Assembly: GCA_039621445.1 (NCBI GenBank)
Contig: CP154954.1
Coordinates: 27,020,123 to 27,084,122 of the forward strand
Reading direction: 5' to 3'
DNA length: 64,000 bases
DNA from: Euglena gracilis
Lineage: Eukaryota
The translations under genes and the position numbers were made by a program. Below, in pieces: positions 20,477 through 41,065 of the stretch. The notes beneath the pieces were generated by a model, which was not told where the DNA came from, ran no database searches, and saw nothing but the letters and a program-made list of their open reading frames with translations. Within the stretch, counting starts at the first letter, position 1; each line of letters opens with the position of its first letter.

Positions 20477-20481
20477 AGAAG

Positions 20482-20909
20482 TGTGTACCAGGCACGTCCC
20501 AGCTCTGTAGGATATCTGCAGAGTGGGTTCTGTGACGGTCGCACCACTGTGGAAAACCACAGCTGGTAGGATCGTGGCAGACCCTTCTGGGATCTGCCCC
20601 TGGACACGTCAGCACTTTTCTCTCCTTCCCCCACAGGTGGTATTCTTTACTCTCACAATCTCCAAGTTTCACCATTGGTTTTGTCAGAGGGAAAAACCCT
20701 CGGAACAATCGACTTTGATCTCAGAAGAAACTTCTGAATCTTTGCTTTGTGCTTTGCTTCTTGGGGAATTGGGAAGAAAAGGGGAAAACCACTTTTCGTT
20801 ACTCCAAAGACTTTTCCCTACCATAAGTAGGCTGCGCACCAAGGCGAAAGCGAAAGGCTTTTACAGAAAGTTCCAAAAAGGGGAAAAGGGAAAGCTTTGG
20901 ACGTACACT
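20482..20909 (+). repeat. 5' LTR of element B (428 bp, TG...CT)
   Basis: Direct repeat of 53388-53814 with only a few differences. Termini TGTGTAC...GACGTACACT. Confidence 0.95.
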
Positions 20910-20937: not shown

Positions 20938-21163
20938 ACAGACGTTCCACACAGAGAAACTCTGTGGTTGACTGGTGGTGAGGATCGTACTGAGCCGTGA
21001 AACACGGTGAAAGTACTGTTCCTGGCCCCTAGCCAACCTTTAAGCAAGAATACAGGTCTCAGAAGGCTCTGTTCGGTAATCGCCGATACAACCTTTCTGG
21101 TCCCTGTTTCTCTGCTTATTTGTGTGAATTTTTGGGTTTTTGCCTTTTTACCCATCTCAAAAG

Positions 21164-24100
21164 ATGCAGAGCACAAGCCCCAACACCAAATTTGATTATG
21201 ACTTGTTGATGAGTTCATTGAGCAATTGTGATGAAGATTGCGGGGATTGGAACGGTTTGAATGAAACAAGTTCCAATTCCCGACCCCCCAAGCAAGAAGA
21301 AGGCAATTTGACTCATTTGTCATTGTCAAAAGGCGAAACGCCTTTATTGTTGCATGGGGGTAATGAACCCTCTTCATCATTGTCATTGATTGTCCGGGAT
21401 GTAGGTGGCAAAATGCCTTCCTCCATCCCGATTCACCCATCATTGATGCAGCGAGGGGATGAACCCCTTGCACCCTCACACTTGGTTACTCATGTTACCC
21501 ATGAACAAAGTGAGGGGTATTGGCCCTGTGCTCTGTTCACACCCAAAAGATCCCCGGTGGAAGCACCGGTGGGCCTTCTGGAGTGCAACTCGGTGGAAAC
21601 ACCGTGTTTTTTCCAACCCCCCCCTCAATTACCACCCCCCACACCATTTCGCGCATTGCCGGGATTACCCGCGGAAGCTGCGGTTTTCCCTGCATTGCCA
21701 TGGAACCCAGATATGCGTCTGGTGGTACCGGAAATCTCTGGTGCCGTTTCCATTGTGGAGGACTATGAGGAAGATTTGAGGGATAACCTCACCCCCGGTG
21801 ATGTTTACCGAATTCTCGGTCAACTCCCAGCGGATCACCCGCTTAGCAAGCAAATTTTGCATGTCCACCAATGCGTTGCGGAATGCGCAACCATGCTCAA
21901 CAAAGTTTTGCAGTTCGATGAGGACAATCAAAGGGTTGTCAACACCAAACTGGAATGTTGCTGGAATTATTTGCAGGAAATCGGCAAATATTGCCAACAC
22001 AATTTTGAAAATGCGGGGAAAGACCTTCAGCATTTTCGAGAAAGTGTCGACAGTATTTTGCGCATCCAACTTCCACAAAATTTCCAACAAATCAGCGAAA
22101 TGCTGCATGAAGCGGAAACGCGGAATGATTCCAAGTTTCTGCATGTGCAGGATGGTATGAGCCATCTTTTTGCCCAATTGGAATCCTGTTCAACCATGTT
22201 ACTGCAATTGCAGCAGCAGTTACAAGCGCAAAATGCCACCCCCAAAATGCCGGAAATCGGTAACTTTGTCGCGGTTGAGCATTTTGCCGCACTTACCACT
22301 TCTTTCCAAGAAGCGCAACAACGAATTTTGCATCTTGGCTCGGAAATCGAGCATTTGAAGCAATTTCAGGCGAAAGTGCAAGAAACTTTTTTTCCCCGTA
22401 CGCAAATCCAGCTTTTGGAGGAACGAATTTCACACTTGGAGCAAAAATCCTGCCATTGTGCCGCAAATCAGGATGGATTAACCACCTTGAACGCGAAAAT
22501 CGCGGATTGCGCACAACGGTTGGATTTTACGCAACAACAAATGCAAACGGACATTGGCGGTATTAATGCCACCGTTGTCGGTTTGCAGGAGCATGTTTCC
22601 GCACTTTCCAAGCGAATTCTCGACATTAGTGGTATTCAAGCCGCTATTGGGGAATTACAAACCCGTTGCACCTTGTTGTCCACCACAGTAGCGGAAATCC
22701 GCTCACTACCCCCCATTTCGCGTGCTCGGATATCCGAGTCACCGGAGTTTCGCTCATTTTACAACAAAATGCTTGGTGACAACAAGGAAACCTTGCAAGC
22801 ATTTTGCACAAGTTTGATTCAACTTGATGAATCGGTGAATCGGAATGCCCGATCCATGCAAGATGAGGTTTCTCGGTTGGATGGACGAATTTCTGCGTTT
22901 TTGGGAAAGCCAACCGCAGAAAATTCGCGCACCACCGCGGAAACCCCCACCAAGTCACTCCACCAATTGCAAACCGTTTCAAATGCGGTAAAAGCGCTTG
23001 CGGGTCAACTCCGGAATGTGGAGGAGTCCCAAGGAAATCTTGCCCAAGAATTACACTTGGTTTCTGAAAAGTTGCCACACTTGGAAGACTTTTCCCGTTA
23101 CCGCAAACGCACTAGGCATTTGGAGACTGAGGTTGACCGTATTTGCGGCCAACTCCAGTTGGTGGAACATTTGGAAGAAACGGTGCATGACTTGTCCGCG
23201 AGTTTGGATAAAATGTCCACTCCGGTACCGGTTGTGCCACCATCCACCGCGGTAAGCGCTGCGGTTGGTATTCCAAATGTCCCGGAATCGCGTTCTCAAA
23301 TTACCATTTCCGGAGTAGGAATCCCTACATCCACCGCGAATTTGGTACAACCACCCGCGAAAACGCGAATTGTACCACCTTTGCATTTGCCAACACCACA
23401 AACACACTCTTCGCACGACATTTCCGATGAGGAAATTGACCCCCCACTCGAAAATTCGAGTCTCCACCAAGAAATTCAACATTCCAACCTTGTACGAGGA
23501 ATGAGCCAGCACCCCACACCTGGTATTGGTCATGTGCCGCATTCGCGATCATACCAACCACCAACGGGTTCTGGATTACCAGACCACCCGTCGGGTTCTC
23601 GGCGGGAAACCCGCCCCACCGGGAGAATTTCACCAAATTTTTCGCAAATCCCGCAGGAAAACCCTGCAAACCTTACACTGGGTGCGGGAAAACCTGCACG
23701 GGTTACACATGGAGCGGAAAATCCGCGAAACGCGTTTGGTGTTAAGAATTACCCTGACCCAAACCCCTGGAATACCACCGAGGGTCAGCGGGTTACTCAG
23801 AGAGACTTCAAGGGCACCATCGCAATCGCGAACAAGGTGAAGCCTCAATGGGACGGGGATCCAACCACATGGAGACAATTTTTTCGGGACTGGGAGTACT
23901 ATTGGGCACTAAAGGGACCCACCCAAGACCCGAATCCTGAGGTAGTCAAGATGGAATTCATCGATTGCCTACCGAGGGAGGAGCGAGAACGCGCACGCAA
24001 TTTGGTGATACGTAATGGCGTATCATTCGATGACCTGGTTGAGCAATACGCTTCAACCAATTCAAGTCTGGTCACCAGGATTACCCTGGAGAAGAAGTGG

Positions 24101-24831
24101 CGACAATTCGCGCCATCGGATCGCAAATGGAAATCCATTGACCTTTGGTATGCCAAATGGTTAGCACTTGCTTCCGAAGTTGATGAACTTAGCGAGAAGC
24201 AAATGCGCGAACAATTCGATGCGGTTTTGTTGCATTTCTCACCATCCCTCGTGAAGGATATCCATCGCGAGGAGTTGGCAGGGCATGAGATGACTCTTGC
24301 CCAACGTTGGAATTATGTGTCAAAGCAACTCAAGCTCACACAAGTTTTGGGACAAATACAGTCCGCTTTCCAAACGCATCCCACCGCGGGAATCCCTGCG
24401 GGTGCGGTTAATGCGTTGCAAAAATCACCCATGTCACCAAGATCACCCACCACGGGACCGAAAACGCGGAATCAGCGTTCCTCGGACCAAGGCACGGATA
24501 AACTGTGCTTTTTGTGCAACAAATCTGGTCACATGTCTCGGGAATGCCCGAATCCCGATGCGCGAAAGCGTATTGGAAGCCCAAGGGGCTCGACCTCCTC
24601 ACGGGGATCGGGTTCCTCGGCGTTTTCACGACAATCGGGAGTTTCACGTTCTTCGGAGAACCGCTTTAGCGATAATAGGCCCAAGTCACCATCGCGTGAT
24701 GGTCGGGAAACCCGTCCTTCTCGCGGTCGGTCACCTGGACCCCCTACCCGAAAACGGGATTTCAATCGCGACTCTTCACGATCTCGTTCGCGAAGTGGAT
24801 CATCCTCTTCGCGGGAGTCACCGGGGAAACC
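21164..24831 (+). CDS. gag: Gag of element B, 5' part (coiled-coil extension, capsid-like region, first CCHC knuckle); interrupted by element C
   Basis: Open ORF from ATG 21164 (MQSTSPN...) containing VKPQWDGDPTTWRQFF and CFLCNKSGHMSREC. The frame is broken at ...SPGKP by LTR C. Confidence 0.9.
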
Positions 24832-25140
24832 TGTGTACCAGGCGTATGCTTCTGTCCCCTTCCGTTGAGGAAGTTAGGATGGAAGCAGATCCTATTAGGA
24901 TCTCCTAATGGGTGCCCCCTTCTCTCTCCACAGGTGGTATTCTTCTTATACCTTTTCCTTCCTTTCCTTGGACCGGACTTGGATTTCCAATCCGTCCTCC
25001 CTGCATTGCTCCGTGCTTTGCTTCTTGGGAAGTGGGAAAAGGGTTTTTACTGTTACTCTGATTTTTAGTTCCCAAGTAGGTGCGCCAAGGCGAAAGCGAA
25101 GGCTTTTTGGGAATTGGGAATTGGGAATCAGACGTACACT
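24832..25140 (+). repeat. 5' LTR of element C (309 bp, TG...CT)
   Basis: Direct repeat of 41066-41375. Confidence 0.97.
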
Positions 25141-25235
25141 TGGTAGCAGATTAGGTCACGATCCTACACACACAGCCCATACAGAAAGAAACGCTATCAA
25201 GTATTACACTTGGTAGCAGATTGGTTCGATCCTAC
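25141..25235 (+). promoter_or_regulatory. Duplicated primer-binding site of element C
   Basis: TGGTAGCAGATTAGGTCACGATCCTAC at 25141 and TGGTAGCAGATTGGTTCGATCCTAC at 25211, each preceded by TACACT. Confidence 0.75.
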
Positions 25236-25424
25236 GCTGACTGGCAGCGGAGAGCCCCTGCACCGTTATTACACGGTCGCAGCGTCAGCTCCCGGCTTCT
25301 AGTCAACGTCTAAGCAGACGAGCAGGCTCCGGAAGGTTCTGTACGGTATTACCCGTTACAGCCCCTCTGGTGCCAGCACAACTGCTTAGTTTTGTGGGTT
25401 TTTGCTGTTTTTGTCATCAGAAAG

Positions 25425-28400
25425 ATGCAAAGCACAGGCCCCAACCATCAATTCAACTATGCCTTATTACAGGCATCATTGCAAGACATCGACCAAGAAA
25501 CTGGGGATTGGAAGCTTTTATGTGAAAATGCTTCCAGTTCCCACGCCGATGAGGCACAATTGATTCAATTGTCACAATTGCAACACTTGTCATCATTGAC
25601 AGTGGTCGGCGATGAGCCCTCCACATCATTGGCTTCAGAGGCTAATGCGGCCTCTTCCGCACTCACCTTGCCACAACGGGGGTATTCGCCTCTGTCTGCG
25701 GCAACGGTGCAGCTGCGCACACCGGAGAGACCCGTGGTGATTCCGCCATCGGGCTTCTCTGGTGATGGTGGGTTGGAAACCCCGTGTTTCTTTCAACCAC
25801 CACCCGCTCTTCCACCGGCAAGCCCTTACAGAGCTTTGCCACCACCCCCCGATATCGGGTGCTATCCCGCACTACCTTGGCAACCGGAGACTCGCCTCGT
25901 GGTGCCGGAATTTTCCGGTACATCCCAACCCATGGATGACTATGGGAAGGGCACTGGTGAGCTCCTCACTGCTGAGGATGTGCAGGATATTGTTGCTCGG
26001 CTTCCAGGGGATCACCCCCTTGTGAGGCAGTTCAACCATGTACAACAATGCGTTGCAGAGTGTGCAACCGCATTGAACAAAGTGCTTCAGTTTGATGAGG
26101 ACAACCAGAAACATGTCTTCACCAAGCTGGAACACTGCTGGAATTACTTGCAGGAAGTTGGCAGATATTGCCAGAGGAATTTCGAAAGTGCGGGTATTGA
26201 CCTTGCAAACTTTCGGGAAACCTTTGACAGAATATGCCAACAACTCCCGCAAAACTTCCGGCAAATTAGTGAATGCATGCATGAAGCGGAAACGCGGAAT
26301 GACTCCAAGTTTCTGCACTTGCATGGATCACTACAACAGTTATCGGGACAAATGGAGTCCTGTTCATCTGCGTTGTTGCATTTGCAACAACAGTTGCATG
26401 CACGAGATTCCTCGTCTGCAACATCCAGCAGTGGTGGATTTGTGTCCATGGACCATTTCACCACATTGTCCGCAACTTTCCATGAATCGCAACACCGCAT
26501 TATGCAGTTGTGCGATGAAACGGAAAAGTTTCGGCAATTCCAGTCACAAGCCAACGAGAATTTTGCTCCCCACACGTATGTGCGGCAGTTGGAGGAGCGA
26601 CTTTCCCGTTTGGAGCAGAAAACCTGCTATTGTGACGCGAATCGGGTTGGATTATCCAATCTGAGCGCGAAAGTCGCGGAAATCGCACAACGGCAGGATT
26701 CCCTGCAGTTGCAGTTGCAATCCGACATTGGCGGGATTAACTCGGCCATTGCGGGTTTGCAACAAAGCTATTCCGCACTTTCCCACCGAGTTCCGGACAT
26801 TAGCGGCATTCAGACTGCTATTGGGGAACTCCAGACCCGGCATGCATCGGTGTCTACCAAAGTAACGGAAATGCAGTCTCTACCTGCAGGTTCCGGTTCT
26901 CGGATTACCGAGAACCCCGATTTCAAGGCATTTTATGACAAAATGCTCACTAACAATCAGGAAACCTTGCAAGATTTCTGCAACAGCCTATTACGGCTTG
27001 AGGAATCGGTGAATCGGAATGCCCGATCCACGCAAAGTGAGATTACCAGGTTGTATGAGCGAATTTCCGCGTTGTTGGATAACCCACAACCTGGAAATTT
27101 GCCCATGGGTACCACAACCGTGTTGTCGGATAACCCTGCACCGGTTGCACCCACCACCACACCAACCAAGGTGACATCACCTTTGCAGATTCTCTCAAAT
27201 GCTGTAAAAGCATTAATGGGACAACTCCAATTATTGGATAAGTCTCACGGGAAACTTGTCCAAGATGTTACCGGAATTTCCGAAAGGATTCCGCACTTGG
27301 ATGACTTTTCACGTTACCTCAAGCGTATTCGCGCTTTGGAGGATGAAGTTGACCGTATTTGCGGCCAACTCCAACTCGTTGAGCATTTGGAGCAAAGTGT
27401 GCATGACTTGTCTGTGGGTTTGGATAATGTGTCCAACCAACAGCGGGTTTCACACCGCAATTCGGCAGTATGCATTGCCGAAGATGCGCCAGATGCTCCA
27501 GATTCGCGTTTCCACAACCCGAATCTGGGTGCACATGCACCACCACCACCCGTGTCCCGAGTGTCACAATCCGCGATTCCGCGAATTGTGCCACCATTGG
27601 CCTTGCCCACAACTCAAAACCAGTTTTCGGATGAATCTCCCATTACGGGAACCGAATTTTCGGAAAACACGGCGATTCCGCCAAGTCTCCACCAAGAAAT
27701 CCATCATTCCATGCTTGTGCGTGGAATGAGCCAAACCCGTACACCGGGAGTGGGTCACATGTTGCATGCGCGACATACTCCCACACCGGAGTGTCCCCCT
27801 ATTACGGGTGACCAACAGGGTTTGCGACCGGATTTCCGGTACCAGGATTCACCTTCACCAGAAATTTCGCGATTCCGACAAGAATCCGGAAAGGATACGC
27901 TTGGTGCTCGAGCGTACCCGGGCCCGAATCCACGGAATACCACCGAGGGCCAACGGGTTTTTCAGAAAGACTTCAAGGGCACCATCGCAATCGCGAATAA
28001 GGTGAAACCCCAATGGGACGGTGATCCAACCACATGGAGACAGTTTTTTCGGGACTGGGAGTACTACTGGGCATTGAAAGGGCCAACCCAGGACACAAAC
28101 CCGGAGGTGATCAAGATGGAATTCATCGATTGCCTCCCTAGGGATGAGAAGGAGCGCGCGCGACAACTCGTCATTCGCTACCGCGTTTCCTTTGATGACC
28201 TGGTGGAGCAATACGCTTCCACCAGTTCAAGTTTGGTCGCTAGGATTACCCTGGAGACCAAGTGGCGGCAATGCGCCCCACCCGATCGCAAATGGAAGTC
28301 CATTGACCTTTGGTATGCCAAATGGTTAGGACTTGCTGCTGAAGTGGATGAACTCAGTGAAAAGCAAATGCGCGAACAGTTTGACGCTGTTCTCATGCAT

Positions 28401-29402
28401 TTCACGCCTAGCCTCATCAAGGATATCCATCGTGAGGAGTTGGCGGGTAATGCAATGACTCTTGACCAACGCTGGAACTACGTTTCCAAGCAACTGAAGC
28501 TATCACAGCTTCTTGGTCAGATTCAATCCGCGTATACCGCACACCCAACCGCAGGATTACCGGCTGGTTCGGTGAACGCATTGCAAAAATCACCGGTTTC
28601 ACCCACTTCACCAACCACGGGATCGAAAACGCGATACCCGCGTTCTTCGGACCAAGCCACGGATAAAGTGTGCTTTTTGTGCAACAAACCGGGACATATG
28701 TCTCGGGAGTGCCCTAATCCTGAAGCGCGAAAGCGTATTCAGAGTCCGCGGGGCTCGACCTCATCACGAGGTTCGGGTTCCTCCGCATTTTCACGTCAAT
28801 CGGGCAATTCACGGTCATCGGGTCCCCGTTCCGGTGGTATTAGCCCCCGGATCCCGTTCCGCGATGAGCGGAAACACGGTACCCCTCGGGGTAGGTCACC
28901 CGGTGCCCCGGCCAAGAAGCGTGATTCTCATCCCGAGATATCGCGATCGCGTTCGCGAAGCGGATCATCTTCTTCGCGATCGTCATCGGGAAAACCCCGA
29001 TACACCGGTCATGGTCGACGGGATATCCGGTCACCACGACGGATTGACGGGAAATCGGGAAACCGAGCCCCCCGTTACCCAGAATCGCGACACAAATCGC
29101 GGTGTTCGCTTTGTGGATCGAGTGATCACCACTCATCCAAATGTCCGCGTTCTCGTTCTCCCCGCCCTGGCCAACGTCATCGCGGTATGAATCGCGGTGA
29201 CAAGGGTCACTCCTCCAACCGCCATAAAGTCGGTTTCAAGATATCTTGTTTGGAGGATGACACCCCGGCTTCGGGCAGGGAGGGGGATGAGACCACGGAT
29301 ACCGATTTCGACGAGGCCCGCATGGCGGTGCGCACGTTGAAATCCGTTTATACCTCTAAAAGGCCCATAGCCGGCTATTCGGCCGGTTCTGACCTGGAGT
29401 AG
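25425..29402 (+). CDS. gag: Gag polyprotein of element C (1325 aa; long coiled-coil N-terminus, capsid-like domain, two CCHC knuckles separated by an RS-rich tract)
   Basis: Uninterrupted ORF with CFLCNKPGHMSREC and CSLCGSSDHHSSKC. Strong similarity to Gag of B. ATG chosen because MQST is the start in all three copies. Confidence 0.93.
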   Translation: MQSTGPNHQFNYALLQASLQDIDQETGDWKLLCENASSSHADEAQLIQLSQLQHLSSLTVVGDEPSTSLASEANAASSALTLPQRGYSPLSAATVQLRTPERPVVIPPSGFSGDGGLETPCFFQPPPALPPASPYRALPPPPDIGCYPALPWQPETRLVVPEFSGTSQPMDDYGKGTGELLTAEDVQDIVARLPGDHPLVRQFNHVQQCVAECATALNKVLQFDEDNQKHVFTKLEHCWNYLQEVGRYCQRNFESAGIDLANFRETFDRICQQLPQNFRQISECMHEAETRNDSKFLHLHGSLQQLSGQMESCSSALLHLQQQLHARDSSSATSSSGGFVSMDHFTTLSATFHESQHRIMQLCDETEKFRQFQSQANENFAPHTYVRQLEERLSRLEQKTCYCDANRVGLSNLSAKVAEIAQRQDSLQLQLQSDIGGINSAIAGLQQSYSALSHRVPDISGIQTAIGELQTRHASVSTKVTEMQSLPAGSGSRITENPDFKAFYDKMLTNNQETLQDFCNSLLRLEESVNRNARSTQSEITRLYERISALLDNPQPGNLPMGTTTVLSDNPAPVAPTTTPTKVTSPLQILSNAVKALMGQLQLLDKSHGKLVQDVTGISERIPHLDDFSRYLKRIRALEDEVDRICGQLQLVEHLEQSVHDLSVGLDNVSNQQRVSHRNSAVCIAEDAPDAPDSRFHNPNLGAHAPPPPVSRVSQSAIPRIVPPLALPTTQNQFSDESPITGTEFSENTAIPPSLHQEIHHSMLVRGMSQTRTPGVGHMLHARHTPTPECPPITGDQQGLRPDFRYQDSPSPEISRFRQESGKDTLGARAYPGPNPRNTTEGQRVFQKDFKGTIAIANKVKPQWDGDPTTWRQFFRDWEYYWALKGPTQDTNPEVIKMEFIDCLPRDEKERARQLVIRYRVSFDDLVEQYASTSSSLVARITLETKWRQCAPPDRKWKSIDLWYAKWLGLAAEVDELSEKQMREQFDAVLMHFTPSLIKDIHREELAGNAMTLDQRWNYVSKQLKLSQLLGQIQSAYTAHPTAGLPAGSVNALQKSPVSPTSPTTGSKTRYPRSSDQATDKVCFLCNKPGHMSRECPNPEARKRIQSPRGSTSSRGSGSSAFSRQSGNSRSSGPRSGGISPRIPFRDERKHGTPRGRSPGAPAKKRDSHPEISRSRSRSGSSSSRSSSGKPRYTGHGRRDIRSPRRIDGKSGNRAPRYPESRHKSRCSLCGSSDHHSSKCPRSRSPRPGQRHRGMNRGDKGHSSNRHKVGFKISCLEDDTPASGREGDETTDTDFDEARMAVRTLKSVYTSKRPIAGYSAGSDLE

Positions 29403-29437
29403 GGGAGCCCGAGGTCCGAGGGCACGGACCTCTGGGC
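29400..29437 (+). promoter_or_regulatory. Putative UAG readthrough signal (stop followed by stem-loop) at the gag-pol junction
   Basis: TAG GGGA GCCCGAGGTCCG AGGGCA CGGACCTC T GGGC. pol continues in the gag frame. Identical in B (41784-41821), with a compensatory base pair in A. Confidence 0.7.
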
Positions 29438-32400
29438 TGATGAACAGATGGAGGTAGGACCTGATCAACCCTGCCCCCCCTGCCCATCTGCCTTCCTGGT
29501 CGGTACCCGGAAAATTTTCGGGTCCCCCACCCCCCACTCCAACTTTCCGCTCGGAATGTTGTGCAAAGTAGGAAAGGGTTCATGGGAAAGCTGGCAAGAA
29601 AACGTATTTTCGCCAGACCCTTCACTTTGCCTACCCCCCATGGAACTTTTGGTCCAAGCGGAAATCAAAATCCAAAATTTTTGTGCAAAAGTCAAAATTC
29701 TCATTGACACTGGTTGTCGCATTGCACTACTTTTTCGGTTCGGGTTGATACCAACCCCCCTCTTGGTGCAAGCCAAGAAGCCGATCAAAATTACGACGGC
29801 TGACAACACCCCCATGTGCGGTGGTGACTTGGGATGCTTTTTGGACATAGTCCTACCCCTCATCCCCAAGCACCACTCACACCCCCCCAACCGCAAAAAT
29901 TTCCGGATACCTGGGGATATGAATCCGGAATCCATGGTTCTGACGTAATTCTGGGATACCCCTTTTTACGTCAGCACCGGCTGGTAGTGGATTGCCACTC
30001 CCACGGTTTGCGCACATCACCACTCTCTTCATTGCCCCCCAAACCTTCATCACCCGTGGCGTCAACCGCGACAGCCACCAATTTTTCCACACCGTTTTCA
30101 AAAACTTTTACCCCGTTACCAACCACACCAACCAACGTTTTCCACACCGGGTGTACCGAGAAAGTTCACCCCCTGCCCACTACCATACCAACTTCCGTTC
30201 CCCATGAGGCAGGGCAAGCGAGTAGCGGTACCCCCCTCGTTCCACTGGGTTACAAGACGAAAGCCCAAAGGCCTGAAGTACGTACGGTGTCGAGTAGTCG
30301 CCCAGCTGCACCAATACCCCGTTTTCCACCAGATGTATCGCTTTCAGATACATCTGTACACCCCCCAGCAGCTACAACAGCGCATCCCAACTTTTACACA
30401 CACCCCCACCAGACCAACATGCGCGACCAGGACCACTACTCCGACACTTCCTTCCAATGTGTGCACTGTAGGAGAATTTCCGCCCAGCCAGATTTCGATT
30501 GTGGATGTTTAGTCCAAACACCAACACTAATCCCGATTTCGCGTAACCATACACTTGGTTGCGGATCGCAATGCGCGACCGTACATCAAGTGCTCCAACA
30601 ACGAGGTATTGCCTTGTTGTTTGGGACCGCGAAATCCGTGTCACACACCTCCCCCACCTCCATCTGGCATGATATGGACTGGGTATGCACCCATCCAACC
30701 CATCAACCCTTGGGAATGCCCCTTGGGAGTGTGGATGACACACCCTTGACCTATGTTTGCGGATCCCTGAATTGCGTTACCGCTCTTCAACCCGCGAACC
30801 AGGTCGACACATACGCGATGCGCGTATGGAACGCATTTAATTTTGGTCAATACCGTATTTTGGAGGAATGGTTCTCCAAAATCGCGGCTTTGGCTGATTC
30901 CTTCGATTTGTCGTTGGAAATTGATGCGTTTTCATCAAAAGCGCATGCGCGCTTGTCGCGATATTGGTCGCGACATACCAACGCATTTCTTAAATTCTGG
31001 GGTGATACGGTGCTGTGGATGCATCCTCCCCCAAAGCTTATCCCGGATGTGGTGGAGAAAATCCTCCGCGATGAAGCGCGAGGAGCTCTCCTCATCCCGG
31101 TCAATCCGAATGCGGATTGGTTTCACCAACTATCCCATGTGTGTTTTCATTGGTGGGATTTACCCGCTGATGTACCACTATTTGAGGATTTTTGTGGTAT
31201 ATTATTACCACCTGTTAAAGAAATCATTTTTCGCATTTGTTTCTTCGACGCATTCGGAATATCCGATGTGCGTGTGCCAAGATACCTTGGTACCAATGGG
31301 GATGCCACACCCTCAACGCAGATTTCTGCGGTCATTGAGAGTGCGGACCAACATCCCAAGTCTGCTGATTATTGTTCGCGAATTGCTCGCGAATTTCATG
31401 GTGTACTGGATAACCCAGTTTACGCCTGCGACATCGACCCCGCGATTCGCGGTCCGTTCGGTGTTTGCAAAATCGAGCTCAAGGATGGCGCTAAACCTAT
31501 GCACCGGAAATTCTTCCGTTGTTCGGGTGAACGCGAACAGGCTCTCAACGAGATGATTGAGAAGCTCATCCAGCGGAAGTGGATTATCCCTTCCAAGAGC
31601 GAGTGGACATCACAAGCTTTTGTGGTGCCCAAACCCGCTGACCAGTCTGGTCAGAAGAAGTGGAGACTGGTGCTGGATTACCGGTACCTGAACTCCCAAA
31701 CGAAGGATGACCCCTTCCCGTTACCGCTGATCGAGGATTTGATCACCAAACAATCGGATAACCGGTTGTGGTCAATCTTTGATCTGGAAGACGGTTTCCA
31801 TCAGATGCATTTGCATCCTGATTCGCAACCGTACACGGCATTCGTGACATCCAAGGGTGTGTACCAATGGACGGTACTCCCCATGGGTGTTAAGAATGGC
31901 CCAGCCATGTTTCAACGCATGATCCAGTGGGTTTTGCGCGATTTACCGTTTGCTCTGGTGTACATCGATGATGTACTGGTGGGAACCCAACCGCCATCCG
32001 CGAAATCGGGCGAGGATATCCTCGACCCGCATTATCGCGATGTGCGCGCGGTATTATCCGCGTTCCAAAAGCATGTGCTTTTTGTGAAGGGTTCCAAAAT
32101 GCACCTGTTTCGCAAAATTATTAAGTTTTGCGGACACATCCTGAGCAACGGGCAGCGTAAAGCCGCACCCAGTAAGATGGAGGCCATTAAGAAATGGACT
32201 CCTGAGGTCATTAAGACCTTAACGCATTTAAAGGGATTTTTGGGATTAGCCCAATACTACGCGATTTACATGAAAGATTTCGCGAAAATCGCGGTACCCC
32301 TAACCCGACAACTCAAAAATCGGACACCCGATAACGCAAAAGTCATTTGGGATGACCAAATGCGCGAGGCCTTGAATAAAATCAAGGACTTGCTCCTCGA

Positions 32401-34528
32401 GAACGTGGTTCTCGATATCGCGGATCCATACAAACCGTATGTCCTGGAGGTCGACAGCAGCGATTACGCTGTTGGCGGGGTTCTTAGCCAGCATAATGCG
32501 GCGAATGAACTCCGACCTGTGGCTTTCTTTAGCAGGAAGCTACAGGGCGACAACGGGAAAGGACAGGTTAAATGGAGCATTCGCGAAAAGGAGACATATG
32601 CCATTGTGCTAATTCTCCAGAAGTTCCGCAGCTGGATAGCCAGCAGCTTGGTCCAGATACTAGTGTTGACGGATCATGAGAGCCTTCAACACTGGTATAC
32701 CGAGGACCTGAACAAGGCCATGTCATCAGTTGGCAGAAGATGCCGATGGCATGAGTTCTTGAGCCAGTTTAACCTGGTGGTAGTTTATACCCCAGGTCAT
32801 ACGCAAAAAGTTGCGGATCCTCTCAGCCGAGCCCCCTGGTATTATCCTGGGAACCCGGATGAGGGTGATGCGACTTTTCATGGCAGCCATGAGGCTGACC
32901 AGTTCGCACGTCGATCCGACGCTGCGGACAACATGCTCGATTCACTACCGGTTTCCCGGGTGTATCGCAGCATCGCCATTTCACCATTGCGTGGAAGGCG
33001 CCGGCGTGGACGCACTGCCGGACCCCGTCGCATTACGCGTACGGAAACTCCTACCCCCCTATTTTTCCGCGAATGGGATTATTCGCGTGACCCTATATAT
33101 AGTACCATTGTGAATAGACTTCGTAATGGTGAATCCATAGAGAATTACTCTCTATCACCATTGCGGCTTATTTTCCGGAATGATTCTGGTTATAAATATT
33201 GTATACCCCAAGACCTGGTTGATGATGTGATTTTGAGCTATCACAACCATGGTCACCCTGGGGCCCCCAAACTTCTTTCACTAGTGGGTCGCAGATATTG
33301 CACAACCCTGAGTGAAAAAGAATTATATTCGCGCTGTTTGCAAATTTCGCAACGGTGCCAAATTTGTCAGGCTGTGAAACCGCGCAGAGGTACCCCCCCT
33401 GGTACGATGGACTTTTTCCCCGTACCACCTGACATTTTTACGTCCCTCTGCATGGATTTTCTCGAACTTGAACCTTGCAAAGGATCAGATGACAAAATTT
33501 ACGATTACGTTTTTGTTGTCGTCTGTCGGCTGAGTGGGTACATAGTAGCCATTCCATGCCGGAAAGCAGGGTTGACAGCCCAAATTTTGGCATCCATATT
33601 CCTGGAGAAATGCATCTGCTTAATGGGTTTACCGAACGAAATCGTGAGTGATCAAGATCACTTGATCTCTTCGCGGTTTTTCACAACTTTGTGCGGTTTA
33701 CTCGGCATTGAGCAGCATTTTTCCATTATATACCGCCCGAAAGGCAATGGTAGAGCCGAGGCAGCCGTGAAATCCGTTGTCAATATGCTTCGCCTTTCAC
33801 TGGCTGACTCGGGTAAGAATTGGTTATCCGTTCTTCATTGGTGTTTATTTTACATCAATACCTTGCCAGGGTTGGTATTACCACACTCACCGTACAAAAT
33901 TGTTTTCGGACGAGACCCTCCGGCCATAGGGGATATCCCCTCGGAGAGACCCGCCCGAAGTAGCGTCAGCTGTGAAACGTGGTTTGCAGAAGTGGAATCA
34001 CTCCGCTCTGCAGTCCAATCACGTATCACAGAAATTCATTCCAACAAACGGAAATCGTTTTTACAAAACTTCAACACACCTGTGTATAGTCCAGGTGACC
34101 GCGTGTGGGTACGGAATAACCGCACCCGCATGCAATCTTCCAAGCTAGATCCTCTTTGGCTCGGCCCATGCGAAATTTTGGAGAGGTTAGGTAGTAGCGG
34201 GCGATATAAAGTTGCCTTGCCCAACGGGATTGAGGACGTCCATATGGACGACTTCAAACCGTACCTAAGCCCCCCAGACGGAAAAGCTATCCCCTGCCTA
34301 TATTTCAAGCCCCGTTCCAGATTACCTGAAACGGACGACTTTGTGGTCGATAAGATAATAGACCACAAGGTCGACAGGGGTGTGCACTACTGGAAAGTTC
34401 GCTGGAAAGGGTATGGGCCAGAGGAGGACACTTGGGAGCCAGCATCCAGTTTTGTTGGATATGTCCAACAGGATTGGAAGCTGTGGAACAAGCGCAATAA
34501 CATAGACATAAACATAAACACTTTCTGA
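29403..34528 (+). CDS. pol: Pol of element C: PR - Cys cluster - Dam-like MTase - RT - RNase H - integrase - chromodomain (one 1-nt frameshift in the C-run at 29882-29888)
   Basis: ILIDTGC and DVILGYPFL (PR), EIDAFSS...WMHPP (MTase-like), [13 protein letters not shown] and YIDD (RT), [12 protein letters not shown]...EKE...TDH (RNase H), HNHGH...CQIC, MDF, SDQD, GRAE (IN), FVVDKIIDH...[17 protein letters not shown] (chromodomain). Confidence 0.95.
30845..31260 (+). other. DNA adenine-methyltransferase-like domain within pol of element C
   Basis: [73 protein letters not shown] resembles the DIRS/phage Dam-type MT pattern D[AL]F[AS]...NAF..W....[WY].[NH]PP..LI....KI......L..P.....W. Confidence 0.8.
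34335..34490 (+). other. Chromodomain at the integrase C-terminus (element C)
   Basis: [40 protein letters not shown], with aromatic-cage positions F, W and Y retained. Confidence 0.9.
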
Positions 34529-34723
34529 AACGATTTCGTTTTGGAGAATGCGTGTGTTTTATGTGAATGTTTCGCGTTTATACCCCCCCCTGCACTTCAT
34601 TATTTCTCTATCTTTCTCGCAGAGTTTTGATTAAGATAGAAGCCTTGCTTTTTCAGTGCTCTCGCACTCAAATCGACTGACAACAAGGTTATCCTTAGTT
34701 GTCGTCGTCGTTCGGGTAGCATC

Positions 34724-37700
34724 ATGCTGCCTGGGCGCGGACCTGGACCAGGTCCACCATGGCCGCAGCCTTCTGGCGCGCCATACCCTCAGTACCCTCA
34801 GTATGCTGAGGCCCCGATTCCGGGTGCCCCACATGCTGAGAGGGTTTCAGCCCCGGTATTCGCCGCGGCTACCAGCAGCCGGTCCGCATATGCGGTACCA
34901 GATCCATCTGCCGTCCAGCAGCCGGCACCTCAGCCACCCGTGCAGCGCAGATCGCGCCTGCCCCCGTATGCGGGAGAGATGATCTTCCGCACTACGGAGA
35001 CGTTGGAGCGGGCGATGCGTATGTGCGCACACCCCCCAACGGAGCCCTTTATGCAAGCCCTTTGGGATGCATACTGTGCTCAGTTGTTGGTGGTAGCCAA
35101 CACCCCTGTGGCTCAGTGGTGTCCCTGCGGTCAAGCCCTGATGACGGGCAGACGGTATTTCTCGTCCGCAGCCGATTCCGGCTTCGAACCCGGCGAGACC
35201 ATGATGGACCTGGGCGTGTATGTGCCGCCCATGCTGCAAACGCAGACGCCGGTGGGATCCCACACCGTGCATATGCGTGAGCACACGCCCCCACCGGTAG
35301 GTGAGGCTGTGCATGTCCCACCTGGGATGACGAGAATTTTTGCTCGCCCGCCCTCGCCGCAGCGAATGCCGCCGCGCGAGCCGCCAGCGGAGCAATTTGT
35401 CTCGCGGTACGCGACGCACGCGGATTACCCGCGCGGCGCACGCGTGCTCCCAGCCGGACAGTCGGACGTGCCCTCTGAGGCATACGTCCAACACATGTTC
35501 ATGCACTGGATGCCACAAGCATCATCGGTCGCCCCTGCCCCTGGCGTTGAGCCACGGAGGCAGGAGGAGCCCATAGTGGTGGAGGATGAACCTCCCCACC
35601 GTGAGGCAGCCCGACCGCCCAGTGCAGCCCCTGTCCAGACTGGGGATGTCCCCCGTCGGCAGGAGGCTCCCTACTATCATATGGCACCTCCGGGAACCGA
35701 GCAGGATGAGCTTGCTCGGCACTTCCTGCAGGAGCCAGTATTCGCGTCTGAAGAGCACCGGACGAGGTATTACGCCTCTCTGGCTGCCCTTCAGGGTCGT
35801 GGATACACCCCCTACCATCCGTACCAGCCGCAGCTGCGGGTGGCGACCCCGGTATTACCCGGTGAGCCCCCGGCAGGAGCGGCAGGATTACCTGCCACCC
35901 TGAAGCGCGATAGGGTTACGGAGAACCTTACCCCACAGCCCAGGCGACCCAGCCCACGGGACGCGGAAGGCGGTGCGGCAATGCAGGTGGAAGCCAGCCA
36001 GGATACCCTGGCCGGGCAACCACCGGCAGTGGCACAGGCAGCGATGAGCCGTCCTGTTGCCGCAATGCCTCCGCCGATCCCTCCGGTATGGAAGGAGCCG
36101 CGACCTCCTACGCCGAAACCAAGCCCACGCCAGGCTCCTGGCCAGCGCCCAGCCACGCCGTCACCGCGACGTGCAGCGGAACGGCAAGGTCCCTCCCCAG
36201 AGATGGAATGGGAAGGTACCGAACCGACTCCTGCCGCACCGAGCGCCCGACCCTCTGGTATTCGCCAGACAGGGAAGGACAAAGGTAAGGCTGAGGGCAA
36301 AGGCAAGGGAGAAGGCAAAGGCGTGGCCGGCAAAGGTAAGGGTGAGGGCAAGGGTAAGGGTACAGCCCGTGAGGAGGAGGAAGAACCAGCAGAAGTCCTC
36401 TCGGACTTTGAGCAAATGCTCAGGTTCAAGGAGGAGCTGGAGGACGAAGGCTGGCGAATGCAGCATGATTACCATGTTGCAGGAAACCGCCCCGTCACCC
36501 CTCCGGAGGCAGTCATCGAGGTGGTATTACACCACACCGAAAACAGAGTCAGACAATTCCATTACGGAATTGACCTGTACGCCTTCGAAGGTGAAGGTGG
36601 CAGACCCTTGCTGGATGCCCAGCCGGGTTTCTGGGAACTCTGGTTTTGGCTGGGATACCCCTGCCAGAACTGGGGTCTCTTCAGCGACTCCACTGGCCGC
36701 AGTTACCTGCACCAGTTAGGATTTCGGGACCAGCATGTGTTGGCCCGAAGGCTGAAGGCAATCTTCGACTGTATTCACACAGTCGGGCCCCTCGGTGTGC
36801 AGTGGAAATACTACCCACTGAACCCCGACATCGAACGCCTGATCGAGGTGTTGTGGTGCAACAACCTCCAGGTGTGGCTGGTGAGCCATTACGGCTCCAC
36901 CTTCCGCGTTAAGCGCGTTTCCCTGGCTTACCCACAGAGGTATGACCTCTGTTGTAAGTATTGCCGGCAGGAGTTTCCTGTCGACTTCTGGGGATTCGGC
37001 GTACGCGGAAGTCCTCCACCGCCTCGGGATAACCCGGGCCTGGAGATGGGACGCCGCATGCTTATGCATGTGTGCCGCGACGCCCCGGATGTCCAGGGCA
37101 AAAGTCGCCGCGTCCATAAGCAGCGTATTTTTATGCTGCAACAGTTCTGGTGGCGAGCCTGGACCACCTACGTCATGGAGGTGTATATACATCTCCGTGA
37201 CACCCAGGACGATAGGCCTGGTATGGAAAGCTTGCCACCAGACTACGGCGACCCCGTTGAGGGACCTCGTCGTCGTCGGGTTATCGCCGACCTGCGCCCC
37301 AACTGGCACCTCGCCGGGATAGACCTGGAGGAACATTTCAGGCGACAGTTTGGCGGTACCCTCGACAGGGAGGTATTCCTCCAGCTGATGAATCACCCGA
37401 AGGCCATCCTCGACCTGGGTATGCCGATTCTGGCATGCGTGCAGGAGTTCGAGGACGGGTTTTTCGAGGTCTGGGAGGACACGCGTTACCGCGGCTTCCT
37501 GGGCCCGAACAGGCCTGCAAACGCTTGGGTGCAGCCATCATGGCCGCCACCCTGGCCCAACAGCGCCAGTAGCAGTACGCTGGCCTTTTACAGGCTGGCG
37601 GATGCCCAGGGATGCCGATGGCACCCCGACGATCCTCGTTCGCCCGAGGATCTGCGCGCCTTCATCGCCCCAGAGGATGAACCTCTGGCGCGAAGGAGAC

Positions 37701-40246
37701 GTGAGGCGTCAGTCGCTTCCACCACTGCGATTCCGCGGCGGGAGGAACGCGACCGCAGCCCCTCCGTCACCATACTGGAGGCAGCGCCGCCGTCTCCGAC
37801 AGGAACGGCTGTATCATTCGTCTCTGCCCCGCGAGCGGCAGGGGAACGATCAGTTTCCCCGGCCCCCGCGGCGGCAGCTCCCGTCTGTCCACCGGTAGGT
37901 GGAGACGAGGAACTCCCTCAGGAGGAAGGCGAGAACGTGGAGGATATCCTCTACGCTGCTCTGCATCCTCTGGCACAGCCTAGGCCAGACGAAGCACCCG
38001 CAGGGGATATACCTGTGGCTGCTACGCCTGTTCCAACGGCTGAGCCTCCAGCCGAGGTGACTGGTATGGTCGTCGAGGATATCCTCGAAGAACCTGCCAG
38101 TCCCACAGCACGCACCTCGTTAGGAGGCCGTGTGCTCGGCGCCGTGGTCACTGGCATTACTGCCGTGGCTGCTGCACTAACGCTACGAGGTGGAGGTGTA
38201 GCATCAAGCTCCGCCGCTGAGGTCGTGGAGACACCAGATGTCGGTGTCCCCACACCCCCATCTCCGGCAACAGCGCAACCACCTTCAGGGGATGAACCCC
38301 AGCCGACAGAGCCATCTGTCGCACCGGCTACAGCGGAGGATCAACCTCCTGTAGCACCTGCGCCAGCGGTTGTGGAGGATCAACCTCCTAGACCGGATGT
38401 CGAAATGGAAGTGGAGGAGATACCCCCACGATCACGGACACCGCGCAGGGACCCTGCCGCCCCGAGGACAATGGCAGAGTTTCTGGGAGCGCCAGCGCCT
38501 GTGGAAGCACCGATTCCGGTGACGACCACAGTGCCACGCCTCGTCGGACAGGATGAACCTGTTCGGCGACGGCCTGCTGAACAACCCCGGGAACGAATGC
38601 CAACCCCTCGGAGCGTCATGCGCGACCCAGCGGTCAGTATGCCCGCTTCGCCCAGACGGCAAACGTCTACTCCGGCACCATCGGCTCCTGATACCAGGAG
38701 TAAGCCGCAGGCGTCGTCTCCTGATTCCGGGAGTGCGAAGCCGAAAGGAGGCAAATCGGGTGCTGCACCCTGTAAGCCCCCTTCCAAAGGCGGTGATGGG
38801 AAACCACCACCGAAAGGTGGCGCTGGAGGTCAGACTGGCGGACAGCCGAAAGGCCCTACGACAATGCACGACTATTCGGCCGTTGCATCGTCCGGGTACG
38901 GCCAGAGCAAACCGAAAGGTAAGGCTCGTGGTCGACAGGCCCAGTCTTCCGCCGGATCGACGGATGAGGAGCAGGATGAACCTGCTTCACCTCCTGTGTC
39001 TGCGGATGCCCAGCTCTGGACCCAGGATATCCTGACCAGACTAGGCACCGTGGAAGAGAGGACGAAGAAACTGGCTGCTATTAGGCACCAGAAAGGGTCA
39101 CTGAATCGATGGATTCAGCCCCTCTTCGTCCGCGGAGAACCTTTCCACTATGTCCCGGAACATACCTGGACATTCTGGAACAGGCGCTCACCCAGAGTAC
39201 TGGCACAGTACTTTGGTGAGGACTGCGTGTTGGATTTCCAGCACGGCACGTCCCTTGCCTGGACGTGCACCGTGTGCCACCATGTGCGGCACAACCAACC
39301 GCTTGTGCATGTGTGCAAGCGGCAGGTGCAATCCTCGTGGTTCCATCACAGGGCATATGTGCCGAACTGTGTGGCGCTCGTATGTGGCGAGTGCCTGAAT
39401 GCCTGGAAGCACAGCTTGAACTACTCCTACAGTGAGAATGCTCACGACAGGGATATCCCTGCCTTGTGCATCAACTGTATAGGAGGCAAGTTCGTGCAGA
39501 CTGCTGATGGAGCAGTCACCACCATTGTCCCCCAGCACTGGGAGACACTGGAGAAGTGGAAGAAGGAGTACAAGCAGGTGGAAGGCCGCCTGAAGCACTC
39601 CGACTTCCGAAAGGTAGAAAGCTACCGCCACACGGGAATGGCCCGTGAGTTCCAGATCGACGCTGGGGCAATGCGCCTCGCCGTCGAGGAACACGCCAAG
39701 GTAAGAATGCCTTACCTCTGGACTGATGGCGACTGGGAGACACAGGTTTACCCCCTGTTCTCCAAGCGTCAGCATGGCGGATACGCCTTGCCACTGTGGC
39801 CTCCTGAAGAACACGATTTGGTGGACTTCAGAGGTTGGTTGGCGGCTGTATTACGGCCCCATACCGCAAGAGCTCGGACAGCGAGGTGGATGTATGACAT
39901 CAACTTCAAGCAGACCCCGGGGATGCCCCCGCAGGTGCCTGCGAATCACCCCCGGATGAATTACATCATCTGGCCGGTGATGCTGCCCAGAATTTTCTGG
40001 GAGCAACTCCAACGGTATCTTCAGCATCATGCTGAGCGTACCAGGGAGAAGCTGCCGGATAATTGGATCAAGGACTGGGAGACCCCTTCCTTTGATGTCA
40101 ACGATCCGGAGCTCAACACCATTCGGAGTGAATCAGCTCCGCCGCGTTCCCCACGCCAACTGGAGTTGGTTGAGGACCCATTAGGGGACCCCCAACACGA
40201 CTACTGGCGTGAGGTCCGCGAACGTCCAGCCAATAAAGGCAGGTGA
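34724..40246 (+). CDS. ORF3 of element C: 1840-aa protein of unknown function (Pro-rich linkers, KG repeat, CxxC/HxC domain, C-terminal RING-like Cys domain)
   Basis: Uninterrupted 5.5-kb ORF between pol and the 3' LTR. Three globular blocks are conserved in the homolog of element B (47048-52480), and the first block is also seen in A (~56100-56420) and E (61183-61722, minus). Confidence 0.9.
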   Translation: MLPGRGPGPGPPWPQPSGAPYPQYPQYAEAPIPGAPHAERVSAPVFAAATSSRSAYAVPDPSAVQQPAPQPPVQRRSRLPPYAGEMIFRTTETLERAMRMCAHPPTEPFMQALWDAYCAQLLVVANTPVAQWCPCGQALMTGRRYFSSAADSGFEPGETMMDLGVYVPPMLQTQTPVGSHTVHMREHTPPPVGEAVHVPPGMTRIFARPPSPQRMPPREPPAEQFVSRYATHADYPRGARVLPAGQSDVPSEAYVQHMFMHWMPQASSVAPAPGVEPRRQEEPIVVEDEPPHREAARPPSAAPVQTGDVPRRQEAPYYHMAPPGTEQDELARHFLQEPVFASEEHRTRYYASLAALQGRGYTPYHPYQPQLRVATPVLPGEPPAGAAGLPATLKRDRVTENLTPQPRRPSPRDAEGGAAMQVEASQDTLAGQPPAVAQAAMSRPVAAMPPPIPPVWKEPRPPTPKPSPRQAPGQRPATPSPRRAAERQGPSPEMEWEGTEPTPAAPSARPSGIRQTGKDKGKAEGKGKGEGKGVAGKGKGEGKGKGTAREEEEEPAEVLSDFEQMLRFKEELEDEGWRMQHDYHVAGNRPVTPPEAVIEVVLHHTENRVRQFHYGIDLYAFEGEGGRPLLDAQPGFWELWFWLGYPCQNWGLFSDSTGRSYLHQLGFRDQHVLARRLKAIFDCIHTVGPLGVQWKYYPLNPDIERLIEVLWCNNLQVWLVSHYGSTFRVKRVSLAYPQRYDLCCKYCRQEFPVDFWGFGVRGSPPPPRDNPGLEMGRRMLMHVCRDAPDVQGKSRRVHKQRIFMLQQFWWRAWTTYVMEVYIHLRDTQDDRPGMESLPPDYGDPVEGPRRRRVIADLRPNWHLAGIDLEEHFRRQFGGTLDREVFLQLMNHPKAILDLGMPILACVQEFEDGFFEVWEDTRYRGFLGPNRPANAWVQPSWPPPWPNSASSSTLAFYRLADAQGCRWHPDDPRSPEDLRAFIAPEDEPLARRRREASVASTTAIPRREERDRSPSVTILEAAPPSPTGTAVSFVSAPRAAGERSVSPAPAAAAPVCPPVGGDEELPQEEGENVEDILYAALHPLAQPRPDEAPAGDIPVAATPVPTAEPPAEVTGMVVEDILEEPASPTARTSLGGRVLGAVVTGITAVAAALTLRGGGVASSSAAEVVETPDVGVPTPPSPATAQPPSGDEPQPTEPSVAPATAEDQPPVAPAPAVVEDQPPRPDVEMEVEEIPPRSRTPRRDPAAPRTMAEFLGAPAPVEAPIPVTTTVPRLVGQDEPVRRRPAEQPRERMPTPRSVMRDPAVSMPASPRRQTSTPAPSAPDTRSKPQASSPDSGSAKPKGGKSGAAPCKPPSKGGDGKPPPKGGAGGQTGGQPKGPTTMHDYSAVASSGYGQSKPKGKARGRQAQSSAGSTDEEQDEPASPPVSADAQLWTQDILTRLGTVEERTKKLAAIRHQKGSLNRWIQPLFVRGEPFHYVPEHTWTFWNRRSPRVLAQYFGEDCVLDFQHGTSLAWTCTVCHHVRHNQPLVHVCKRQVQSSWFHHRAYVPNCVALVCGECLNAWKHSLNYSYSENAHDRDIPALCINCIGGKFVQTADGAVTTIVPQHWETLEKWKKEYKQVEGRLKHSDFRKVESYRHTGMAREFQIDAGAMRLAVEEHAKVRMPYLWTDGDWETQVYPLFSKRQHGGYALPLWPPEEHDLVDFRGWLAAVLRPHTARARTARWMYDINFKQTPGMPPQVPANHPRMNYIIWPVMLPRIFWEQLQRYLQHHAERTREKLPDNWIKDWETPSFDVNDPELNTIRSESAPPRSPRQLELVEDPLGDPQHDYWREVRERPANKGR

Positions 40247-40286
40247 GGTGTCTGTCAGCGCCAATGCGGCGTCTTTCAGCACCCTC

Positions 40287-40362
40287 GTCAGGTATTCGCC
40301 TGACACCCTGTTTGGGTATTCGCCCGAACAGCCCCTTCGAAGACCTTTGCGGTATTCGCCGC
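40287..40362 (+). repeat. Three tandem hairpins with identical TATTCG loop and different stems
   Basis: GTCAGG-TATTCG-CCTGAC, CTGTTTGGG-TATTCG-CCCGAACAG, GCGG-TATTCG-CCGC. Confidence 0.8.
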
Positions 40363-40515
40363 TAGTAAGTTCCCACCGGGATGCTGCCATGTGCAGGATT
40401 CCGTGCGCATGCATGCACACCCCTCTCCCCTCTCCCCTCTCGCGGGCGTGCGACACGCAGCGCACAGGGCCGACGGCCTCTTTTCCTTTCCCTTTCTTTT
40501 CTTTTCGGCCGTTTG

Positions 40516-41055: not shown

Positions 41056-41065
41056 GGGAGGGGGA
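41056..41065 (+). promoter_or_regulatory. Polypurine tract of element C
   Basis: GGGAGGGGGA immediately before the 3' LTR; identical in B. Confidence 0.9.

Follow-up and report, generated by a model that had tools for sequence, protein, structure and literature searches.

How does a retrotransposon produce its Pol protein when gag is divided from pol by a stop codon lying in frame? The question is raised by a 64,000-nucleotide stretch of the Euglena gracilis genome (assembly GCA_039621445.1, contig CP154954.1, positions 27,020,123 to 27,084,122 of the forward strand; the window, to whose first letter all positions below refer). The window holds three copies, named A, B and C, of a family that is assigned below to the chromovirus-type long terminal repeat (LTR) retrotransposons. 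In each copy gag ends at a UAG that is followed almost immediately by a predicted RNA hairpin, and an earlier note made from the sequence alone (the original prediction) had proposed stop-codon readthrough at this site. Programmed UAG readthrough, stimulated by 3' structure, is probably the answer. The interpretation is supported in each of its aspects that can be tested in silico: the TAG is shared, the surrounding block is conserved, the predicted fold is stable, substitutions preserve pairing, and the gag of distant relatives ends at the same place. The junction is made up of the following features.

29400-29402 in C, 41784-41786 in B and 17097-17099 in A, forward strand: in-frame UAG between gag and pol, with GAG before it and GGGA after it.
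29407-29437 in C, 41791-41821 in B and 17104-17134 in A, forward strand: hairpin 1, of 12 bp with one bulge, or 13 bp with the A-U closing pair in B and C.
29450-29477 in C, 41834-41861 in B and 17147-17174 in A, forward strand: hairpin 2, GG-A-GGUAGG, an 11-nt loop and CCUGCCCC, occupying 29439-29489 in the minimum-energy fold.
29369-29388 in C and 41753-41772 in B, forward strand: upstream hairpin AGCCGGCU-AUUC-GGCCGGUU, ending 11 nt before the UAG.
29448-29450 in C (codon +16) and 41832-41834 in B, forward strand: first in-frame AUG after the UAG, the start codon under a rival model of reinitiation or a separate RNA.

Reading of the sequence confirmed the three sites of TAG, GGGA and hairpin that had been claimed for C, B and A, as well as the in-frame ATG named at 29448 and 41832. 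The junction sequence runs TAG, GGGA, then GCCCGAGGTC(C/T)G, AGGGCA and C(G/A)GACCTC-T-GGGC. In C, hairpin 1 is composed of a 5' arm (29407-29418), the loop AGGGCA (29419-29424) and a 3' arm (29425-29437) with a bulged U at 29433. Its base lies 4 nt behind the UAG, and its uninterrupted 8-bp upper helix lies 8 nt behind. When up to three mismatches are allowed, the 33-nt hairpin pattern is found at exactly three sites in the 64 kb (expected 0.00 from 100 shuffles). B matches C with 0 mismatches, as expected from the claim that the two signals are nucleotide-identical. A differs by 2, a paired C>T and G>A facing each other, which are precisely the exchange of one C-G for a T-A pair that was said to keep the stem.

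The 46 nt from the stop fold with -25.2 kcal/mol in C (z -4.06, with 0 of 200 shuffles as good), and the corresponding junction of A folds with -22.4 kcal/mol (z -3.73). Among 15,885 windows of 40 nt along the internal RNA of C, hairpin 1 is the second most stable, and it also ranks second in B (11,972 windows). Because the listed windows of greater or equal stability all belong to GC-rich ORF3, the open reading frame (ORF) behind pol, hairpin 1 is the most stable 40-nt fold in the gag-pol of C. The arms of hairpin 2 read GGUAGG/CCUGCC in C, GGUAAG/CUUACC in B and GCAGG/CCUGC in A. The upstream hairpin was likewise found in both B and C, for which it had been described; A retains only a 4-bp GGCC/GGCC core, and 79% of cells are paired across the three copies.

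The TAG-hairpin block is the most conserved stretch of gag-pol, at the nucleotide as well as the synonymous level. In an alignment of B and C comprising the end of gag and the entire pol (5.5 kb, 80.5% identity), the longest perfect run (29395-29456, 62 nt) extends from the last gag codons through the TAG and hairpin 1 into the beginning of hairpin 2. The junction block is also the sole 20-codon window in which 20 of 20 codons are identical. Degenerate codons that specify the same residue in B and C are identical in 17 of 17 cases within the block, against 67% elsewhere (P = 0.0011). The more diverged A copy gives a similar result: the best 58-nt window between A and C is again the junction, with 55 of 58 nucleotides identical compared with 71% overall (P = 4.6e-6). 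All three changes between A and C in the conserved block (29393-29450) are synonymous, and 12 of its 15 degenerate codons are identical, against a background of 54% (P = 0.034).

Substitutions that do occur largely maintain the pairing of both helices. All 12 pairs of hairpin 1 are kept in all three copies, one of them changed on both sides (C-G to U-A in A). Between C and B, hairpin 2 shows a G-C to A-U and a U·G to U-A replacement, and some of these changes are non-synonymous. Between C and A, a U·G pair becomes C-G and one closing pair is lost; taken over the three copies, two pairs of hairpin 2 are altered on both sides and one is broken in A. These patterns were compared with random placement of the observed numbers of substitutions on the structure predicted from C alone. 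The 3 substitutions that separate B from C all lie in stems and break 0 pairs (P = 0.004); of the 7 that separate A from C, 4 lie in stems, and one pair is broken (P = 0.036). Covariation with three copies is anecdotal.

The relation of the two frames was described in the original prediction as pol continuing in the frame of gag. This applies fully to B, whose 1699-aa pol ORF opens at 41787, immediately after the TAG, and lacks a start codon ahead of codon +16. C keeps the frame open over 181 codons only, and A is degenerate downstream. C is without one C near 29881 that is present in B, in 55 contigs of DNA run X1, and in contigs of X18 and X15; its absence is an ordinary inactivating deletion and not a signal. 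Since pol is thereby shifted out of frame, C is not autonomous, despite LTRs that are 99.4% identical. The TAG is common to three subfamilies that are 71-81% identical. B and C among them are young insertions: their LTRs are 99.1% and 99.4% identical and their target duplications are intact, so that the stop and recent transposition are compatible. A programmed frameshift was considered and rejected, as pol lies in frame 0 and no slippery heptamer precedes the TAG. No tRNA gene or suppressor tRNA was found in the 64-kb window.

Distant relatives place the stop at the same point. A protein query consisting of the last 136 gag codons of B, the TAG read as Q, and 400 pol codons was used in an exhaustive search of 1.84 billion protein representatives, which returned 142 matches. 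Eleven of these lie wholly on the gag side, and nine of the eleven end, with their last residue, in the motif aligned to ...SDLE (SDLD, SDLE, SDFE in four cases, TDNE, SDYE and SEKE); of the remaining two, one is a zinc-knuckle repeat protein and one a fragment with an earlier end. Two matches span the junction: P0044, in which a near-identical copy has been read out of frame, and P0024, which crosses in frame (...SDFE-W-GRPGSLGTDLRADEQ...) with a Trp at the position of the stop, which would be encoded either by TGG or by a TGA translated with a different code. Protein-level conservation in relatives (35-45% identity) includes the residues from the stop to the first AUG, and this fits translation running through the junction. 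An arrangement of gag ending in ...SDxE, a stop, six codons and a pol beginning GTDLWAD... is thus shared by a broad family that is mostly metagenomic and 35-50% identical. Searches for the DNA of these relatives with an alignment of pol N-termini gave 148 pattern matches in metagenome contigs, 8 in viral contigs and 84 in genome contigs, with 0 confirmed in each set, and a DNA pattern that fixed both flanks and left the hairpin free had 0 matches in metagenome contigs.

Read evidence took the form of assembled contigs, with 15 of 192 joints and 40 of 752 variant positions listed. The copy number of the family is enormous, with 52,186 contigs of DNA run X1 matching the stretch 25141-30400. Matching sequences are present in many DNA runs, in a leaf-litter metatranscriptome and in further runs guessed to be RNA, and RNA run X18 provides depth in 30 of 30 bins. 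The occurrence of the family in leaf-litter metatranscriptome contigs suggests that it is transcribed in nature. None of the 40 listed variants (of 752) lies between 29068 and 29684, which is no proof of invariance. The depth of X1 is higher in the junction bin (1.9 million) than in the neighboring bins (1.2 and 1.5 million), a difference that was not used as evidence.

In the proposed mechanism, most ribosomes would stop at the gag UAG and yield Gag only, while a minority would decode the UAG by a near-cognate tRNA and go on in the same frame into protease, reverse transcriptase (RT) and integrase. The outcome would be a Gag-Pol fusion made at a low, fixed ratio. The leakiness of the stop would be set by its 3' context, UAG-GGGA, together with the stable GC-rich hairpin 1, which a second, imperfect stem-loop follows directly. 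With the UAG in the ribosomal A site, both hairpins would sit at the mRNA entry.

Several observations weigh against programmed readthrough. What is directly observed is the anatomy of the junction, how it is conserved and where the stop lies in relatives; readthrough itself, its stimulation by the hairpins and the identity of the inserted amino acid are inferred. The 4-nt spacer to the base of hairpin 1 is shorter than the 8 nt of murine leukemia virus (MuLV). The caveat, raised in the original prediction, that the compensatory pair of hairpin 1 could have arisen by two CpG deaminations proved justified: both changes are CpG transitions, and changes of CpG to TG or CA affect approximately 12-22% of CpGs between C and A. 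For this reason the single pair is weak evidence, with an estimated chance occurrence of approximately 0.02-0.2. A shuffle control for covariation over the three copies was not significant, as 153 of 500 shuffles reached the observed score. A pseudoknot is unsupported: the loop GGGCA has a UGCCC partner downstream in all three copies, at +73 or +82 and at no single conserved site, as judged by complementarity. A scan of 29250-29650 against Rfam 15 (E up to 10) gave no matching family and only chance matches to miRNA and snoRNA families (best E = 1.2). The remaining points on this side are the predicted pol starts of relatives, the behavior of the Tca2 junction and the coding content of the 3' arm of hairpin 1, each of which favors a particular alternative.

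The alternative that survives best, though we regard it as unlikely, is that the stop is bypassed in another way. Pol would then arise by termination and reinitiation or internal initiation at the AUG 16 codons on (29448 and 41832), or from a separate pol transcript made from an internal promoter, and the hairpins would pause or tether ribosomes or play no part. The in-frame AUG at codon +16 is common to A, B and C. Twelve of the protein matches begin 6-8 codons past the stop, with M or V followed by G-T-D-L/P-W-A-D/E, and the many relatives whose predicted pol begins with M or V six codons after the stop could have a start codon there. At that codon, however, the A, B and C copies have GAG, and the predicted starts may be choices of the gene caller such as GTG, two of them being printed as V. 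Initiation at codon +16 would moreover leave the protein-level conservation of the residues before it, and the in-frame passage of P0024 through the junction, to be accounted for. An out-of-frame ATG 8 nt upstream of the in-frame one, which opens a 5-codon mini-ORF, also speaks against reinitiation. As to a separate RNA, none of the 15 joints listed (of 192) occurs in the RNA run or in two runs guessed to be RNA, and no listed RNA contig bridges the stop; the joint data do not contradict readthrough, nor do they exclude a rare spliced form.

A precedent for such a bypass is provided by Tca2 of Candida albicans, which resembles the E. gracilis elements in having an in-frame stop and a predicted 3' structure at the gag-pol junction but is a Ty1/copia element with a UGA stop. 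According to the account of this junction in PMC2194720, its UGA and predicted pseudoknot were not sufficient for autonomous readthrough in S. cerevisiae, and promoter activity was found at the junction. The same account nevertheless shows that Tca2 Pol derives from the gag-pol RNA.

It is more doubtful still that the conserved block is a cis-acting RNA element for packaging, dimerization or nuclear export, or a strongly constrained peptide, that merely abuts the gag stop, with a hairpin that does not affect termination. T-D-L-W-A, encoded by the 3' arm of hairpin 1, belongs to a T-D-L-W-A-D-E peptide that distant relatives conserve family-wide, so that coding accounts for part of the nucleotide conservation of this arm. 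Long identical runs can arise in these elements from protein constraint alone, as is shown by the second-longest perfect run between B and C (29244-29294 in C, 51 nt), which encodes ...LEDDTPASGREGDE.... This island is explained by its PASGREGD motif, a candidate protease cleavage site or interaction motif that recurs in almost every distant gag relative approximately 35 codons before the stop. Against such a reading of the junction block stand the conservation of its synonymous sites (17/17 and 12/15), the retention of pairing in two helices, and the fact that the most stable fold in the gag-pol of C starts 4 nt after the sole in-frame stop. Production of Pol would in any case still require some mechanism of bypass. 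A candidate long-range pairing between the G-rich gag block within the island (29276-29283) and a C-rich tract behind hairpin 2 was rejected; it is lost in A, and the block is explained by the PASGREGD motif.

That the TAG is a shared inactivating mutation of dead copies, as the degenerate A and the frameshifted C might suggest, or an amino-acid codon in this host is very improbable, given a stop at the same residue in three subfamilies and in 9 of 11 distant gag-side relatives, the near-identical LTRs of B and C, and the approximately 4,900 codons of gag, pol and ORF3 that contain 0 TAG, with pol and ORF3 terminating in TGA, because of which TAG is not taken as a sense codon here.

Programmed readthrough at this junction can be compared with several known systems. 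Most Ty3/gypsy elements use -1 frameshifting or have a single ORF. Skipper of Dictyostelium, a chromovirus attributed to Leng et al. 1998, reportedly has a single stop and a potential pseudoknot between gag and a separate protease ORF. The junction is nevertheless less unusual for a Gypsy element than the original prediction implied. As presented in the part of PMC10085805 that deals with them, the fission-yeast chromoviruses Tj1, Tosmo1-3 and Tcry1 have an in-frame stop between gag and pol in a conserved GAA-TGA-CT context, and the stop of Tj1 is reported to be essential for transposition. Skipper and Tca2 are cited as further in-frame-stop cases in passages of PMC10085805 and PMC5009743. The E. 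gracilis elements share with these Tf1/sushi elements the chromovirus branch, a single in-frame stop, a Glu codon before it and strictly conserved surrounding nucleotides. They differ in combining GAG-UAG-GGG with a strong hairpin, whereas for GAA-TGA-CT, a short-context signal, no 3' structure is described in that part of PMC10085805.

A close parallel in layout is the gammaretrovirus MuLV, for which a UAG, an 8-nt spacer and a compact pseudoknot are described in the relevant sections of PMC3159437 and PMC5009743. In both cases gag and pol share one frame divided by a UAG with G at position +4, a purine-rich spacer leads to a nearby GC-rich structure, and pol begins with protease. In contrast to the demonstrated H-type pseudoknot of MuLV, two adjacent hairpins are predicted in E. 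gracilis, the spacer measures 4 nt to the helix base (8 nt if counted up to the uninterrupted upper helix), similarity is absent both in sequence and in Rfam, and the carrier is a Ty3/gypsy retrotransposon rather than a retrovirus. In alphaviruses and a number of plant virus genera, readthrough is also stimulated by extended 3' stem-loops, and a recognized hallmark of readthrough stops is enhanced synonymous conservation on their 3' side, as outlined in the sections of PMC3159437 on these viruses. Raised synonymous-site conservation behind the stop and a phylogenetically kept stem-loop are common to these viruses and the elements described here. As far as those sections go, however, the viruses mostly use UGA-C(GG/UA) and structures of approximately 100-200 nt, whereas the E. 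gracilis module comprises UAG-G and two hairpins within approximately 90 nt.

It is tempting to go a step further and to suggest, tentatively, that the junction represents a recoding module present family-wide in giant (approximately 16.5 kb, three-ORF) chromoviruses with a DAM-like region, a widespread lineage that has hardly been described. Its stimulator would be tandem hairpins 4 nt behind the UAG, structurally distinct from both the gammaretroviral pseudoknot and the short-context signals of fission yeast. A hairpin-type UAG readthrough signal would then have evolved independently in Metaviridae-like elements. A full-text literature search found no UAG-plus-hairpin junction described in an LTR retrotransposon, although Gao et al. 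2003 and Leng et al. 1998 may describe similar ones.

Readthrough signals with a defined RNA structure are few and mostly viral. If readthrough is confirmed, an abundant and apparently transcribed retrotransposon family would contribute a compact, strongly conserved UAG-hairpin module, and with it a tractable test case for how simple hairpins near a stop modulate termination. Gag-pol fusions would also become easier to annotate in this lineage, for which metagenomic gene calls at present give separate protein fragments. What is known of the way in which retroelements adjust the ratio of Gag to Pol is unchanged; with in-frame stops already known in chromoviruses, this would be a good new example of a known trick rather than a new kind.

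The elements that carry the junction have the following anatomy.

24832-41375, forward strand: element C, a full-length nested copy, an approximately 16.5-kb chromovirus-type LTR retrotransposon inside the gag of B.
24832-25140 and 41066-41375, forward strand: LTRs of C, 309 bp, 99.4% identity over 310 bp (self-blastn).
24827-24831 and 41376-41380: 5-bp target duplication AAACC of C, ends read directly.
25141-25152: sequence of C resembling a primer-binding site, TGGTAGCAGATT, directly behind the 5' LTR.
41056-41065: polypurine tract of C, GGGAGGGGGA, directly before the 3' LTR.
25314-29399, forward strand: gag of C, open over 1362 codons, containing two CCHC zinc knuckles (zf-CCHC, E 8.6e-07) and ending ...GSDLE.
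29403-34528, forward strand: pol of C, with protease (LIDTGC), DAM-like region, RT, RNase H, integrase and chromodomain, and the 1-nt deletion near 29881.
20482-53814, forward strand: element B, split by C, delimited by self-blastn and reading of its ends.
20482-20909 and 53388-53814, forward strand: LTRs of B, 428 bp, 99.1% identical.
20477-20481 and 53815-53819: 5-bp target duplication AGAAG of B.
21128-24831, resuming at 41381-41783, forward strand: gag of B, interrupted by C.
41787-46886, forward strand: pol of B, intact, 1699 aa.

Element B likewise has TGGTAGCAGATT after its 5' LTR and GGGAGGGGGA before its 3' LTR. Once C and one copy of its target duplication are subtracted, the gag frame of B amounts to 4107 nt or 1369 codons, by coordinate arithmetic only. 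Copy A (around 13.7-20.4 kb) is an older, degenerate relative that is approximately 71% identical to C. The intact pol of B matches the Pfam families RVT_1 (E 4.6e-24), RT_RNaseH_2 (3.2e-24), rve (2.4e-09), Integrase_H2C2 (4.1e-06) and Chromo (5.7e-10), and the protease motif LIDTGC lies approximately 100 codons downstream of the gag stop. The order of protease, RT, RNase H and integrase with a C-terminal chromodomain, together with direct LTRs, target duplications, primer-binding site and polypurine tract, assigns the elements to the chromodomain-bearing Ty3/gypsy LTR retrotransposons of chromovirus type.

Each element of approximately 16.5 kb contains three long frames, a very large gag, pol and ORF3. 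Gag is unusually large at approximately 1360 codons (25314-29399 in C; first part at 21128-24831 in B) and comprises a long coiled-coil-like N-terminal half (with a weak NPV_P10 match), a capsid-like part, two CCHC knuckles and an Arg/Ser-rich tail. ORF3, the third long frame behind pol, is found at 34640-40246 in C (1868 codons) and is proline-rich with Cys/His-rich stretches; it has no Pfam match in C. Its counterpart in B (46973-52391) is split over several frames and weakly similar (67-77% in short pieces). The GC content of ORF3 is 58-61%, compared with approximately 50% in gag-pol.

A region resembling Dam N6-adenine methyltransferases is located between protease and RT (43260-43510, or aa 494-573 of pol, in B; aa 353-434 of the frame 29828-34525 in C). 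Its matches to Pfam Dam (PF05869) score 20.2 and 21.4 bits (E 5.1e-04 and 2.2e-04), less than the curated cut-off of 28.1, and the relative P0002 has a precomputed PF05869 match. Two motifs of the region read ...EIDAFSS... and ...LWMHPP... (W-M-H-P-P); the catalytic motif of Dam-type enzymes is N/D-P-P-Y/F/W. DAM-carrying LTR/chromovirus-like elements have been described in several protist and algal lineages in a preprint (bioRxiv 10.64898/2026.05.21.726589), and the E. gracilis family may group with these DAM-LTR retrotransposons, possibly with an altered catalytic motif.

The whole window is retrotransposon-derived. Its flanks (1-12357 and 53842-63817) contain other repeats, including a tandem duplication of approximately 3.2 kb (3355-6511 against 6534-9717, 89%), and further fragments of pol-like copies occur on both strands, for example at 53842-55323, 57132-59793 and 61687-62365.

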